A DNA stretch of 64,000 bases from an uncultured delta proteobacterium (GTDB lineage Bacteria; Myxococcota_A; Polyangia; Fen-1088). Position 1 is the first letter of the stretch. Each line of letters begins with the position of its first letter. The DNA lies in contig CAVYGB010000008.1 in NCBI GenBank assembly GCA_963767925.1, forward strand, positions 608,001 through 672,000. Direction: 5' to 3'. The position numbers were made by a program, and so were the translations under genes. Below, piece after piece: positions 24,714-33,560 of this stretch. The notes under the pieces were generated by a model. The model ran no database searches. It was not told where the DNA came from and was given only the letters and a program-made list of their open reading frames with translations.

Positions 24714-25793
24714 ATGGCTCAGGACCCCGCAGAGAAAAACGCCGGAAACCCCCAGGACAAGCTGCGCGCTTACCGCCCCGGCCGTGAATTTTTCGTCGGC
24801 ATCGACTCGGACGGTTGCGCCTTCAACTCGATGGAGGTCAAGCACAACGACAGCTTCAGCGTGAACCTCATCAAGTACTTCGGGCTGCAGGGGCTGTCGC
24901 GCCAGGCCCACCAGGCCTGGGACTTCGTGAACCTGTATTCGCAGACCCGCGGCTGCAACCGGTTCAAGGCCCTCGTGCTCGCCTGCGATGAGCTGCGGAA
25001 GATGCCCCGGGTCGCCAGGACCGGCATCGCCGTCCCCGAGCTGCCGTACATCAAGAGCTGGATCAAGAGCGAGACCCAGCTCGGCAACCCCCGCCTCAAG
25101 GAGAAGATCGCCGCCGCCCAGGGGGCCGAGAAGCAGGAGCTCGAGCTGGTCTACGAGTGGAGCAAGGCGGTCAACAAGACCATCGAGGACATCGTCCACA
25201 ACCTGCCCCCCTTCCCGGGCGTGCGGGAGAGCCTGGGCAAGCTGCGCGAACGCGCCGACATCCTCGTCGTGTCGGCCACCCCCCAGGAGGCGCTCGACCG
25301 GGAGTGGGCCGAACACGGCATCGACCGGTTCGTCTCGCTCATCGCCGGACAGGAGATGGGCTCCAAGACCGAGCACCTCGAGCTGGCGGCCAAGGGGAAA
25401 TTTCCCTCCGACCAGATCTTGATGGTGGGCGACGCCCCCGGCGATCTGAAGGCGGCGCGCGACGTGGGGGCCCTGTTTTGCCCGATCAACCCCGGCGACG
25501 AGGAGGCCTCCTGGGAGCGCTTCCTGAAGGAAGGGATCGACAGATTCTTCGGCAAGCGGTATGCGGGGGCCTACGAGGCCGAGCTGATCGCGGAGTTCGA
25601 TCGGCTGCTGCCCCGGAAGACCGCCATCCCGCCTTGGAAGCGCAATCAGGCGGCGACAAGCCTGGGCCCGCGAGGCGACGACGAATGTCCGGCAATTCCG
25701 AGGAGGAGCAACGAAGCGGGGGCGCAGGATCGTCGCCGAATGGTTGATGCAGTTCGAAGACGGCGCACTAGGCCGTCGGCTGTCGAGTGTTGA
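24714..25793 (+). CDS. HAD family hydrolase
   Basis: Motif I GIDSDGC, VVSAT, K, MVGDAPGD; the C-terminal tail after PPWKR may be non-conserved. Confidence 0.85.
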   Translation: MAQDPAEKNAGNPQDKLRAYRPGREFFVGIDSDGCAFNSMEVKHNDSFSVNLIKYFGLQGLSRQAHQAWDFVNLYSQTRGCNRFKALVLACDELRKMPRVARTGIAVPELPYIKSWIKSETQLGNPRLKEKIAAAQGAEKQELELVYEWSKAVNKTIEDIVHNLPPFPGVRESLGKLRERADILVVSATPQEALDREWAEHGIDRFVSLIAGQEMGSKTEHLELAAKGKFPSDQILMVGDAPGDLKAARDVGALFCPINPGDEEASWERFLKEGIDRFFGKRYAGAYEAELIAEFDRLLPRKTAIPPWKRNQAATSLGPRGDDECPAIPRRSNEAGAQDRRRMVDAVRRRRTRPSAVEC

Positions 25794-25821
25794 TCGAGGA
25801 AGAATCAGGAGACGCACACAG

Positions 25822-27274
25822 ATGAGCGAGACGCAAAAAGCGAACATCGGGATGCTCGGGCTGGCCGTCATGGGCAGGAACCTGGCCCTCAACATCGCGG
25901 ACCATGGCTTCCGGGTGGCGGTCTGGAACCGCGACGGATCGGTGACCGACCGGCTGATCGCCGAGAACGCCAAGAGCGGGCAGGCCGCCCTGCTGCCGAC
26001 CAAGTCGATCCAGGAGATGGTGGCCTCGCTCGAGCGCCCGCGCCGCGTGTGGGTGATGGTGAAGGCCGGCAAGCCGGTCGACGACGTCATCGATCAGCTC
26101 AAGCCCCTGCTGGAAAAAGGGGACGTCATCATCGACGGCGGCAACACCCACTTCCAGGAGACGCGCCGGCGCGAGGCCGACCTGCGCGCCCTGGGCCTGA
26201 ACTTCGTGGGCACCGGCGTCTCGGGTGGAGAAGAGGGGGCGCGCCGCGGCCCCTCGATCATGCCGGGCGGTGAGGCCGCGGCCTGGAACTCGCTGCGCCC
26301 GATCCTGGAGGCCATCTCGGCCAAGACCGACTCCGGCCCCTGCGTGACCCACTGTCGGTCCCGACGGCGCCGGCCACTTCGTCAAGATGGTCCACAACGG
26401 CATCGAATACGGCGACATGCAGCTCATCGCCGAGGTCTACGACCTGATGTCGCGGGGCCTGGGGCTGCAGCGCCCCCGAGATCGGCGAGATCTTCGCCCG
26501 CTGGAACGAGGGCCCGCTGGCCTCGTTCCTCGATCGAGCTGACCGCCAAGGTGCTGAGCGTGAAGGACGGCGAGACCGGCCAGCCGCTGGTCGACCTCGT
26601 GCAGGACAAGGCCGGCCAGAAGGGGACCGGCAAGTGGACCGCCGAGATCGCCCTCGACCTCGGCGTCCCCATCCCGACCATCGGCGCGGCCCTCGACGGA
26701 CGCGGTGCTGTCGAGCATGAAGGACGAACGGGTGGCGGCCGCCAGGCGCATCCGGGGCGCGGGCCTCACCGGGACCCTCCCGGCCAGCGACCGCAAGGAG
26801 ATGGTGGCGGCGATCCACGACGCCCTCCTGGCCTCGAAGATCTGCTCGTACGCCCAGGGCCTGCATCTCATCCGCACCGGCAGCGACAAATACTCCTGGA
26901 ACGTCTCGCTCAAGGAGACCGCCCGCATCTGGAAGGGCGGTTGCATCATCCGCGCGCGAGCTGCTCGACACCATCATGCGGCGCTCGAGCGGACGCCCGG
27001 GCTGCCCAACCTGCTGCTCGACGAGGACTTCGAGAAGCGCATGTACGCCGCCCAGCCGGCCTGGCGGCGCGTGCTCGCCACGGCGGTCACCCTGGGGATC
27101 CCGACCCCCTCGATGAGCGCCAGCCTGGCCTACTTCGACAGCTACCGGACCGCCCGGTTGCCGCAGAACCTGACCCAGGCCCAGCGCGACGCCTTCGGCG
27201 CCCACACCTACGAGCGCACCGACAAGCCAGAAGGCGGCTTCGTTCACACCGACTGGCTCGGCACCCGCGGCTGA
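25822..27274 (+). CDS. gnd: NADP-dependent 6-phosphogluconate dehydrogenase (several frameshifts at about 26350-26990)
   Basis: [66 protein letters not shown] across frames. Confidence 0.9.
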
Positions 27275-27312
27275 GCCAACGCCCTCCAGATAGGCCACCC
27301 ATGACCCGTTTG

Positions 27313-27357
27313 CCCTCGCCCCGCGGTCTTCCGCGGGGAGAGGGAAAGGGTGAGGGG
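27313..27357. repeat. REP-like palindromic intergenic element between convergent genes
   Basis: CCCTCGCCCCGCGG-TCTT-CCGCGGGGAGAGGG followed by AAAGGGTGAGGGG. Confidence 0.6.
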
Positions 27358-27442
27358 AGGTTGCCAGGTCGGGCGCCCGTCGCAGACGCGCCCGACCTCT
27401 CCGCACGGCGCGGCCGAGCGGGACAGGTGAGTTCCGCCCGCC

Positions 27443-28302
27443 CTAAAGCACGATCTGCAGGCGGCGGCGGTAGTCCTGGGTCAGCTCGTGCTGGCCGCCG
27501 AGCTGGTCGAAGATCGCGAGCATGGCCAGGCGGGCGCCGTCTTCCTTGAACTTGCGGTTTCGGCAGGCGATCTCGAGGAAGTGGTCGAGCGCCTCCTGGC
27601 TCTGCCCGCGGGCGGCCAGGGCGCTGGCCAGCGCGTAGCGGGCCTCCAGATCCTTCTCGTCCTTGGCCAGCGCGGCCCGGGCCTTGTCCTCCCCGCCGTA
27701 GGCCTCGGCATCGGTGGCGAATTGCAGGCGGCGTTCGAGGGGGGCAGCTCCAGCGCCTGCGCGCTGCGGGGGTCGATCTGGGCGATGGCCGCCCGCGCCT
27801 CCTCGCCGCGACCGGCGTCGACGAGCAGGCGGGCCAGGGCCAGCAGGGCTCGATCCTTGACCTCCTCGTCGCCGGTGAGCCCGCGCAGCGCGGCCTCGGC
27901 CTCTGCCACCCGCCCGGCCCTGGCGTCGGCCTCCGCCTTCTCCAGCGCGGCCACCCCGGGCGCTGGCACCAGCGCCTTGAGGAACCGCTGGATCTGGGGC
28001 GCGGGGATGGCCCCCACGAACTCGGAGACGACCTTGCCGTCCCGGAAGGCCTTCACCGCCGGGATGCCCTGGATCCCGTATTCGTAGGCCAGCTCCGGGC
28101 TCTCGTCGGTGTTCACCTTCACCAGCTCGGCGCGCCCGTCGAGCGCCTTCACCTCGGCCTCGATGATCGGGCCCAGCACCCGACAGGGGCCACACCAGGG
28201 CGCCCAGAAGTCCACGACCACGGGAACCGTCTTCGACCGCTCGATGACTTCGGTGGCGAAGTCCTTGGTCCCGACATCTTTGTACGGCGGTACAGCGCTC
28301 AT
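27443..28302 (-). CDS. Thioredoxin-TPR chaperedoxin (YbbN/CnoX-like), frameshift near 27730
   Basis: VDFWAPWCGPC, TPR helices, C-terminal DGARLAMLAIFDQLG..YRRRL. Confidence 0.88.
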
Positions 28303-30743: not shown

Positions 30744-30815
30744 CCGTCGCGGGCGCACTAGCCGGGATTATTCATCAGGCGGCAACGCTGGCGGTCGCGC
30801 GGCCACCGGCGCCGT

Positions 30816-30867
30816 GTTCCCGATCGTTCCCGTTCCCGTTCCCGTTCCCGTTCCCGGACCCGTTCCC
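30816..30867 (+). repeat. Subterminal (GTTCCC)n array, left end
   Basis: GTTCCC-GATC-(GTTCCC)5-GGACCC-GTTCCC. Confidence 0.95.
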
Positions 30868-30960
30868 GGTTTTTCGGACTGGGGCCCACGCAATGGGCGA
30901 CTGAGGGCAGGGCTGCGGCCCAGCGGCGGGGGAATAGAAGGCGAAGGGAATGTGGGCGAT

Positions 30961-31581
30961 TCAGCCGAAGGGCTGCGGCGATAGCAGCCGCCTGGCGATG
31001 CGAGCCCAAAGTGACTGCCAGGGATGGCTGGAGGCCAGATGAAACCAGATGCGACGGGCGGAGCCGAGCACGCGCACACCGATCTTGAGCAGGCAGGCGG
31101 AGGGTGTCCATCTGGGCATCGGCGAGCTCGGTGCCGTGTGCGGCGCGGCGGAGCATATACATGAGGACGTAGGCGGCGGCGTGCGGGAGCAGGCGAAACT
31201 GGTTGGCCCAGAAGCGGTGACAGCTCAGGCGGTCGGCCCTGAGCGCCCGCTTGAGGTCCCTGATGGAGTTTTCGCAGGCGTCGGCTCGCTGCACATAGCA
31301 ACGGTCGTACAGCTTCTGGGGGTCACCAGCAAGATTGGTCACCACGAAGCGAACGTTCGAGCCTTGCTCGGTGTGCTCGGCCTTGATGATCATGCGGTAG
31401 CTGAGCGGCCAGCGCTTGCGACCCGTTCCCATGGAGCGATATCGGTCAGGCCGAGGCGCCGGTCGGCCTGCCGCAGGAGCAGGAGCCCACCGTCGCGGGA
31501 GATGGGCCCGGCGTCGAAGGCCGCTCGTACCTGCCGGCGCCCCGCGAACGGGAAGTCGATTTGGCTGGTATCCTCGTGCAT
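30961..31581 (-). pseudogene. IS1380-family transposase with a large internal deletion and a frameshift
   Basis: N-terminal AFDAGPISRDGGLLLLRQADRRLGL joined at about 31435 to RMIIKAE..NVRFVVTNL..CENSIRDLK..DRLSCHRFWANQFRL, then a shift to LLKIGVRV..RRIWFHLASSHPW, TGA at 30961. Confidence 0.88.
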
Positions 31582-31658
31582 CGAGCGGCCCTCCTCGTCG
31601 TTGCCTTCTGGTCTCGCAACCGAAAAGCAGTGCGAGAAGTGTGCCGCTCGATTCTTCT

Positions 31659-32033
31659 TCAGCGCGATGGCTCTTCTTGCTCGCCGAGCAGCTTCGCCAT
31701 CTTCGTCAGCATCGAGACGATGCGCAGTAGAAGATCGCGTCCTGCCCCCAACGTAGCTTCGTCGCTGAGCTTCACCTTGCGGCAGACATCCAGTAGTGCA
31801 GCGCACTCCGTCGCCGACCGCAGTGCCATTCGGTGGAAGCGCGCCTTGTCCTTCCTGCTGAATTCCCCGGCTACCTCGGCCACGTTGAGCGGCACCGAGG
31901 TCGCCGCGCGCTGCAGTTGGTCCGCCAGGTAGGCTCGACCACGCGGCAGCTGCTCCACGATGTCGTCCGCCTTGGCGACGAACTCGATTCCCGCCTGGTA
32001 CACGTCCAGCTTCTCGTGATCGAAATGGCCCAT
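31659..32033 (-). CDS. Four helix bundle protein (23S rRNA intervening-sequence protein family)
   Basis: FDHEKLDVYQ, LADQLQRAATSVPLNVAE, KARF..MALRSATECAALLD, RIVSMLTKM. Confidence 0.9.
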   Translation of the reverse strand: MGHFDHEKLDVYQAGIEFVAKADDIVEQLPRGRAYLADQLQRAATSVPLNVAEVAGEFSRKDKARFHRMALRSATECAALLDVCRKVKLSDEATLGAGRDLLLRIVSMLTKMAKLLGEQEEPSR

Positions 32034-32077
32034 TCCCTGTTTTCGGCCAGCGCCTTCTCAGGTTGCGGGTACGGGGC

Positions 32078-32116
32078 ACGGGTCCGGGAACGGGAACGGG
32101 AACGGGAACGATCGGG
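32078..32116 (-). repeat. Subterminal (GGGAAC)n array, right end, inverted relative to the left array
   Basis: ACGGGTCC-(GGGAAC)4-GATCGGG. Confidence 0.95.
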
Positions 32117-32174
32117 GCCAGACACCCTGTTCGCGGTGTCTCGACGGCGGCGCCCCGCTGGTGCTTAATCCCGG

Positions 32175-33560
32175 CTAGACGTCGATCTTGTGGTCCTTCG
32201 TCTCGCGGATGAACAGGCTGGCCACCACCACGGTGATGAGGCAGACCGCGATCGGATAGATGAGGCCGGTGTAGATCGCCCCCGGTCCGAAGGTCGTCCT
32301 GGCCCAGGCGGAAGCCGTCACCGCGGTGGCGATGAGGGGCAGAAAGCCCCCGAACCAGCCGTTGCCGATGTGGTACGGCAGGGACATCGAGGTGTAGCGG
32401 ATCTTGGTGGGGAACAGCTCCACCAGGAAGGCGGCGATGGGGCCGTAGACCATGCAGACGTAGACCATCTGCAGGGTGAGCAGCAGGACGATGAGGATCT
32501 GGTTGCTCGTGCTCGGCTCGGGCAACGGGTGGGCCAGGCGCTGCATGGCCATGTAGATCGGGAGGTAGGTGAGCGCCCCCAGCAGGCAGCCCGCGATCAT
32601 GATCCTCTTGCGCCCGATCCGATCGGACAGCCACCCGAACAGGACGAACAGCGGCGTGGAGAGGGCCAGCGCGATCGAGATGAGGGTGTAGGAGGTCTGC
32701 CAGCTCACCTTGAGGACGTCACGCAAGAAGGTGAGGGCGTAAAACTGCCCCGTGTACCAGACCACGCCCTGTCCGGCGGTGGCCCCGAAAAGCGCCAGCA
32801 GCACGTATTTCAGGTTGGTGCGGTTGGCGAAACTCTCCACCAGGGGGTTGCGCGAGATCTTGCCGCTCGCCTTGAGCTTGGTGAAAAGGGGCGACTCCTT
32901 CATCCGCACCCGGATGTAGAGCGACACCCCCAGCAGCAAGACCGACAGCAGGAAGGGCACCCGCCAGCCGTAGGACCGGAAGGCCTCTTCCCCGAACATG
33001 GTCCGGAACACCCCGATCACCAGCATGCTGACGAAGAAGCCCAGCGTGGCGGTGGTCTGGATGAAGCTCGTGTAATAACCCCGGCGCTTGTCGGGCACGT
33101 GTTCGGCCACGTAGGTGGCGGCGCCCCCGTATTCGCCGCCCAGGGCCAGCCCCTGCAGCAGCCGCAGGGCCACCAGCAGCACCGTCGCCCACAGGCCGAT
33201 GCTCTGGTAGGTGGGCAAGACGCCGATCAGCGCCGTCGATAGGCCCATGGTCGCCATGGTGACGAGGAAGGTGTACTTCCGCCCGATGAGGTCGCCCAGG
33301 TGGCCGAACACCAGGGCCCCCAGCGGGCGCACCCCGAACCCGGCCCCGAAGGTGGCCAGGCTGGCCAGCAGCTGGGCGGTCTCGTTCCCCGGAGGGAAGA
33401 ACAGACCGCCGAAGAAGCTGGCCAGGCTTCCGTACAGGTAAAAGTCGTACCACTCGAACAAGGTGCCCAGCGAGGAGGCGAAGATGACCCGCCGGATCTT
33501 GGGGGGGTCGAGGGCGGCAGGAGGATCGGCGGCTGGCGGGTCGAGCGTCACCTTGGGCAT
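32175..33560 (-). CDS. MFS transporter, metabolite:H+ symporter (MHS) family
   Basis: SSLGTLFEWYDFYLYG, RPLGALVFGHLGDLIGRK, QGLALGGEYGGA, ELFPTKIRY. Confidence 0.93.
   Translation of the reverse strand: MPKVTLDPPAADPPAALDPPKIRRVIFASSLGTLFEWYDFYLYGSLASFFGGLFFPPGNETAQLLASLATFGAGFGVRPLGALVFGHLGDLIGRKYTFLVTMATMGLSTALIGVLPTYQSIGLWATVLLVALRLLQGLALGGEYGGAATYVAEHVPDKRRGYYTSFIQTTATLGFFVSMLVIGVFRTMFGEEAFRSYGWRVPFLLSVLLLGVSLYIRVRMKESPLFTKLKASGKISRNPLVESFANRTNLKYVLLALFGATAGQGVVWYTGQFYALTFLRDVLKVSWQTSYTLISIALALSTPLFVLFGWLSDRIGRKRIMIAGCLLGALTYLPIYMAMQRLAHPLPEPSTSNQILIVLLLTLQMVYVCMVYGPIAAFLVELFPTKIRYTSMSLPYHIGNGWFGGFLPLIATAVTASAWARTTFGPGAIYTGLIYPIAVCLITVVVASLFIRETKDHKIDV

Follow-up and report, generated by a model that had tools for sequence, protein, structure and literature searches.

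The window, i.e. the whole 64,000-nt stretch of DNA that was analysed, carries an element of 1,413 bp between two CTAG copies that form its target duplication (right copy, 30758-30761; left copy, 32175-32178). A gene for an FHA/PP2C-type phosphatase lies on one side of it and, convergent with this, a gene for an MFS transporter on the other; the left CTAG copy contains the stop codon of the transporter gene. The G+C content of the element is 66% vs 72% in the window. Short terminal inverted repeats of IS1380 type are present (21 nt, 86%); the right one (30762-30778) has invariant columns in comparison with seven relatives, and the left one (32162-32174) has two changes relative to sister copies. 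On the gene strand, which is the minus strand of the window, the order is native left end, hexamer arm, four-helix-bundle (4HB) gene, leader hairpin, transposase, ca. 90 nt, hexamer arm and native right end. An earlier note on this DNA had described CTAG copies, terminal repeats, arrays, a transposase remnant and a 4HB gene, with the same 1,413 bp between the CTAG copies, and every one of these parts was found in its place. A scan for sigma-70 promoters and terminators returned none of either. Elsewhere in the window, the reading frame of a gene that looked by eye like one for 6-phosphogluconate dehydrogenase (25744-27549) is broken into several frames, as is expected from long-read indel errors.

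The passenger slot starts just inside a native IS1380 left-end motif, ACAGGGTGT (32122-32130, minus strand), which is conserved in six relatives without the 4HB gene. Hexamer arms are placed symmetrically around both genes, 57-58 nt inside each end: a left arm of (CGTTCC)n on the gene strand (32074-32116), recognised by inverted-repeat and array detection, and a right arm of (GGAACG)n on the same strand (30819-30870). Their arrays (32074-32110, 6.2 copies; 30825-30868, 7.3 copies) pair as a 43-nt inverted repeat at 91%. The right arm is the 3' arm type of the 4HB clade, displaced here behind the transposase.

The 4HB gene (31659-32033, minus strand) encodes 124 aa, and its ORF (32033-31659) scored 71 bits on TIGR02436 (cut-off 24) and 72.8 bits on PF05635 (cut-off 33.8). 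PF05635 is a large orphan family. The ORF had been described as intact, which is true of the reading frame, but two private changes, Val54 and His67, replace near-invariant Gly and Tyr residues; Gly and Tyr were found in 82/82 pattern-matched homologues (of 119 examined) and are retained in three sister copies. The ribosome-binding site formerly assigned to this gene was not upheld: a purine run directly abuts the ATG, too close for a textbook site, which needs spacing before the start codon.

The transposase gene is represented by 623 bp of remnant sequence, in two parts. The 5' remnant (31442-31581, minus strand) covers aa 1-46, and the 3' remnant (30961-31445, minus strand; stop codon at 30961-30963) corresponds to ca. 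aa 290-450 of the protein P0242, with a 2-nt gap near 31092. The two are out of frame with each other and meet at a 4-nt microhomology (31442-31445, minus strand), where 730 bp of the transposase gene is gone. The remnant matched NF033539 (E 4e-25; 88 bits, below the cut-off of 180) and PF13701 (E 8e-32). Upstream, a predicted leader hairpin (31580-31652, minus strand; -42.9 kcal/mol, z -4.35, matched by 0/200 shuffles) takes in the ribosome-binding site of the transposase gene together with the beginning of its ATG, and comparable transposase leaders were found in the IS1380 relatives L070, L072 and L073.

Copies of the element and their target site

Four complete copies were found in the genome: C8:638758 (the window copy), C2:1552742, C2:1805192 and C2:1078135. 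They differ by 8-22 letters in ca. 1,420, have unrelated flanks and all carry one and the same 730-bp transposase deletion; in addition, there are a rearranged copy with both ends and several isolated ends. CTAG was present at 13/14 true element ends, a count that leaves out two further rows with spurious matches, and on both sides in 4/5 two-ended copies. Since 14 of the 16 perfect GTTCCC/GGGAAC arrays (three or more units) in the 9.3-Mb genome belong to the element family, and since CTAG marks 13/14 ends despite its rarity (0.23 per kb vs 2.6 expected), the family is not a product of chance. The duplication lies within the 4-5 bp that characterise IS1380 targets. Among the best 80 of at least 545 IS1380 loci, the same 4-mer stood on both sides in 43 of the 63 two-ended loci, and these included the non-palindromic duplications TTAG/TTAG and CTAA/CTAA.

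Both further copies and an empty CTAG site had been anticipated. Four copies and a full-length contig (see below) were obtained, but the empty site differed: in a same-genus genome (G001), both flanking genes are adjacent without the element, with another stop codon and no CTAG.

An assembly artefact, or a one-off chance juxtaposition, was considered as a source of the structure. Homopolymer-type indels between copies in the assembly fit this explanation, as does the lack of the deletion joint in the four sequencing runs examined. However, four copies with distinct flanks argue against it, as does a gene-transposase junction that recurs in other studies' runs and in read-through proteins. It is already largely refuted, and we regard it as highly improbable.

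Several further rearrangements were observed. The rearranged IS1380 copy (G000:C2:1148689-1150828; L003:111-1532) has lost all of the transposase, and nested behind its left arm are a 101-bp IS5-element end and an ORF of 473 aa in which a YADD motif occurs. On inspection by eye, this ORF resembles the reverse transcriptase of a group II intron; it is probably a later insertion, and a link to the element was set aside. A diverged right half (G000:C2:2138701-2139090) contains 15 hexamer copies, i.e. an expanded array. In P0123, a protein record from a 116-kb contig, the transposase end and right arm are followed by left-end sequence as a frameshifted tail; this single record hints at a possible exchange of the two ends through the arms, by inversion or conversion.

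Full-length parent of the window element

An intact IS1380 transposase of 450 aa (P0242), recorded on 15 contigs, scored 384.8 bits on NF033539 (cut-off 180). Read-through variants of P0242 run into the right arm, and P0246 reaches the right terminal repeat. A 2,002-bp contig from an independent soil study (X5 record 11, study P2) matches 32105-31442, continues with 726 extra letters and then matches 31445-30836; with 34 differing letters, it comprises arm, 4HB gene, whole transposase and arm. In X6 (P3) and X8 (P5), the 4HB gene runs on into the beginning of the transposase, and where X1 and X6 have loose ends at the joint, their sequence is that of the missing transposase. The comparison with sequencing runs covered 4 of the 22 listed; X1 possibly has the same source as the window and was left out of the independent evidence, and an X8 joint in which the right arm is passed over was set aside, having only 22 letters on one side. 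From the X5 contig, the X6 and X8 junctions and the X1 and X6 loose ends, it follows that 730 bp was deleted at the 4-nt microhomology and that the whole element measures ca. 2.15 kb, although no single parent record covers both terminal repeats.

The arm-to-arm contig with its full transposase, together with P0242, indicates that the parent is a transporter IS (tIS), in structure a passenger and an intact transposase from arm to arm, and that the window copy is a defective derivative. The full-length element, as represented by the X5 contig and the read-through products, contains both the gene and the arrays, which bears out the earlier note's view of a composite mobile unit. Close full-length relatives keep both, so that within this circle the case that the note had named against its own proposal, full-length relatives lacking the gene and the arrays, was not encountered. 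P0263, a diverged deleted variant from another sample, also retains the gene and the arms.

The deletion joins transposase codon 46 out of frame to ca. codon 290, so that aa 47-290 are lost. The lost part holds the invariant residues D153, D155 and D232, whereas E347 is kept; these are candidate residues of the DDE triad, and the catalytic core is not intact in the window copy. Six family matches in the 84%-complete assembly included no full-length IS1380 transposase and none over the cut-off, i.e. no donor for movement in trans. Close transposase relatives were likewise absent from 60 related genomes (best 41%), 400 genomes of the class (best 49%) and 710 plasmid records (all under 60%). Among 42 candidates from viral contigs, one distant locus was noted. 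Since one deletion is common to four sites, the deleted form probably spread after the deletion, with transposase supplied from elsewhere.

IS1380 relatives and the passenger slot

For comparison with IS1380 elements in general, the best 80 of at least 545 confirmed metagenome loci were used (44-69% transposase identity). A 4HB match or an exact hexamer array was found in 0/80 of these, and the same 4HB profile detected 16/16 control loci. Within this set of the best 80, 61 of the 63 two-ended relatives measured 1,611-1,863 bp, and the left end lay within 304 nt of the transposase in 66/68 relatives in which it was found, leaving no room for a passenger. The other two two-ended relatives, L066 and L068 (66-67% identity), are 2,122-2,123-bp elements with another gene, of 145 aa, in the same slot. 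They share the conserved left-end motif with the window element, and their passenger (L066:301-741 and L068:96-533; partial in L067 and L071) begins just inside it. The sister passenger has a basic N-terminus, belongs to no Pfam family and falls in an Atlas cluster of 4,306 hypothetical proteins. The slot thus appears to be a property of this IS branch, with exchangeable cargo, and the passenger would, on this comparative evidence, be dispensable for transposition. The distance from codon 391 to the outer CTAG is 383 nt in the window element vs 348-454 nt in relatives from the best 80 of at least 545; the right end is therefore not longer than theirs, which fits an arm copied over native sequence. 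Read as DNA, relatives had an identity of either at most 69% or at least 96%.

The exact 17-nt end was also searched for in species genomes, where it occurred at 116 or more loci (L146-L261; 36 with short flanks). No exact hexamer array lay near it at the loci listed, and one 4HB match lay 2.3 kb away, at a locus where the second end was not found. Forty-three of these at least 116 loci are MITE-sized, with a second end within 68-241 nt, many in Planctomycetota and Acidobacteriota.

The earlier note had held that the gene and the arrays are integral parts of the IS. Under such an accessory system, an Avd-like pentameric 4HB protein would bind the arms and either aid end pairing or regulate the transposase. 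The symmetry of the arms around both genes and their retention, with the gene, in close full-length relatives speak for it. The 4HB relative 2GSC (E 4.5e-14) has five chains in its entry, and the available part of 10.1101/2023.10.23.563531 describes Avd as a positively charged barrel of five subunits and reports an RNA element to which Avd binds. However, gene and arms are absent from all of the best 80 of at least 545 relatives, the nearest sisters hold an unrelated gene in the slot, and the same arms accompany 4HB genes without a transposase (see below). In addition, conserved 4HB residues or the start codon are altered in the window copy and in C2:1805192, the ATG being lost in a copy other than that of the window. 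The comparison does not support the view that both are integral parts of the IS, and we consider this system quite unlikely.

Hexamer arms and other 4HB genes

By comparison of sequences, the arms belong to the 4HB lineage and not to IS1380. A Gly-Thr-type dipeptide run ends 77 of the best 120 of 1,845 4HB homologues; it represents the same hexamer arm, translated in frame immediately after the 4HB gene. The same hexamer was found inverted on both sides of the 4HB gene in 14/27 loci from other genomes of the class. Among the 132 longest ORFs near these 27 loci, 92 were scanned for transposase families and gave no match at E 1e-8; tblastx showed an IS5-like remnant at one locus, L303. Outside the present genome, the cassette is mostly found by itself between ordinary genes. 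At L299, L305 and L309, 4HB cassettes are bordered outside the arms by short palindromic REP-like units, some with CTAG. When the single 4HB protein was used to scan species genomes, 291 candidate stretches came up, none of which was confirmed. The inner-end inverted-repeat score was 75 in the window element and at most 27 in the 63 two-ended relatives among the best 80 of at least 545.

All 19 TIGR02436 matches of the genome lie in IS-derived DNA of three types: 5 in the IS1380 family, 13 in an IS5 element and 1 in an ISNCY/IS5-like element. The IS5-family element (1.6 kb, NF033580; G000:C10:1775105-1776712 and relatives, L007-L019) has a divergent 4HB gene and behind it, at the element end, inverted arrays of other hexamers that form a hairpin. 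It is present in four near-full copies, with split 4HB frames, and many deleted ones. The single CTAG-flanked ISNCY/IS5-like element (G000:C6:353280-355550, L006) consists of a long CGTGCA array, a 4HB gene and a transposase, with an array before the gene only; sites elsewhere that have no such gene are matched by this CGTGCA array as well. Three 4HB lineages, unrelated to one another, are thus carried by three transposases. This pattern is the most surprising point of the analysis, but it comes from a single genome in which transposition has inflated the copy numbers. The presence of 4HB genes in three IS types would fit the accessory system described above; the split 4HB frame in the four near-full IS5 copies argues against it.

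In the predicted fold, the arms pair in a helix of more than 30 bp that closes both genes, and the end-to-end duplex reached -167 kcal/mol vs -88 +/- 7 for 100 shuffles. The cassette might act at the RNA level: the arms would pair on the transcript, RNase III would cut, and the loop with both genes would be released. The arm would have moved behind the transposase to close the whole unit, and IS ends would be favoured as safe, multiplying homes. Besides the fold, the IS-borne position of 19/19 genome matches and the naming of the family from 23S intervening sequences (available part of PMC3936711) agree with this model. On the other hand, such folding is a property of any perfect inverted repeat, the bracket is missing in the C6 element (left arm only) and in the IS5 type (both arrays behind the gene), and elsewhere the cassette lies mostly between ordinary genes. 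An RNA-level cassette is unlikely in our estimation.

Discussion

The results of this study favour, with a probability of roughly two in three, a 4HB gene and arms that form a hitchhiking cassette and are not part of the transposition machinery. The window element would be an internally deleted, non-autonomous derivative of an IS1380-family tIS, resembling a mobile insertion cassette (MIC). A ready-made cassette, i.e. the gene with its inverted hexamer arms, would have entered the slot behind the left-end motif, and the 3' arm behind the transposase would most likely have been copied over ca. 50 nt of the native right end by paired-end conversion. Alternatively, the cassette may have sat in an IS1380 MITE which regained a transposase; elements of MITE size that have this end are common (43 of at least 116 loci). 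The DDE transposase would act on the terminal repeats, IS1380 transposition would not need the cassette, and the deleted form would have spread with transposase supplied in trans. Several observations count against this explanation: every close full-length relative seen keeps the gene and the arms, and so does the diverged variant P0263; 19/19 genome matches are IS-borne, more than casual capture suggests; and the G001 site is without CTAG, no empty allele carrying the duplication having been found.

The element shares with the IS1380 family one DDE transposase of ca. 450 aa (NF033539, PF13701) and short terminal inverted repeats with a target duplication, but its parent is ca. 500 bp longer owing to the internal passenger and has long inner inverted arms and a 4-bp CTAG target. 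For IS1247 of this family, the available part of PMC3281130 gives 1,672 bp, IR 16/13 and DR 5. According to the accessible portions of PMC3129680 and PMC7986276, a tIS is an IS with passenger genes unrelated to transposition; like these, the full-length parent holds a passenger gene beside an intact transposase between IS ends, but here the passenger comes with repeat arms of its own, which alternate with the parts of the IS and enclose the transposase too. MICs and MITEs are established kinds as far as PMC3281130 and PMC3129680 were available. The window element agrees with them in its lack of a working transposase, its retained IS ends, its passenger gene and its several copies, and differs in its transposase remnant and in having an identified parent. 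Four copies with one deletion suggest MIC-type movement in trans. ISEcp1 and ISPme1 modules, also of the IS1380 family and moving an extra gene, misread an end and so pick up DNA that lies past the 3' end (accessible part of PMC9330008); here the cargo lies inside the true ends, upstream of the transposase, and ISEcp1-type capture was rejected for this reason.

With ORF-bearing 23S rRNA intervening sequences and the Avd protein of diversity-generating retroelements (DGRs), the element has in common the protein family (PF05635, 2GSC, 4DWL), related to Avd according to the available part of PMC10053308, and a gene inside a predicted long stem; it differs in lying outside rRNA and in a stem of hexamer repeats. 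Both identities were rejected: the element lies between the phosphatase and MFS genes and not in a 23S rRNA gene, and no reverse transcriptase, template or variable repeat is present inside it. In the case of 23S rRNA intervening sequences, RNase III cuts them out of the RNA. The literature searched, i.e. main texts with few subscription papers among them, contained no description of a 4HB gene inside an IS or flanked by hexamer arms; IS1380 tISs may be listed in other subscription papers or in supplements. The terms 'four helix bundle protein' and 'insertion sequence' occurred together in PMC5524665 only, with the gene in a table of its available part.

To our knowledge, the hexamer-armed 4HB cassette has no known way of moving. 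One route of its movement appears to have been caught here: it travels in an IS1380 element that is complete and present in many copies, and this genome also has it in IS5 and ISNCY/IS5-like elements. With the full element of 2.15 kb, any role of the protein or the arms could be read out simply as transposition. If the cassette is mere cargo, parent and derivative make a neat new pair of tIS and MIC; otherwise, DDE transposases would have gained a new kind of accessory system. A more far-reaching idea, which we hold to be doubtful, is that the 4HB cassette settles preferentially in several IS families, that its protein binds the paired arms as RNA or single-stranded DNA, that arms are copied or exchanged between ends and in this way come to enclose both the gene and the transposase, and that the complex controls IS expression or end pairing. 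If this were true, a cassette remodelling IS ends would be the first function for PF05635 outside DGRs, and it would be testable in the intact multi-copy element.
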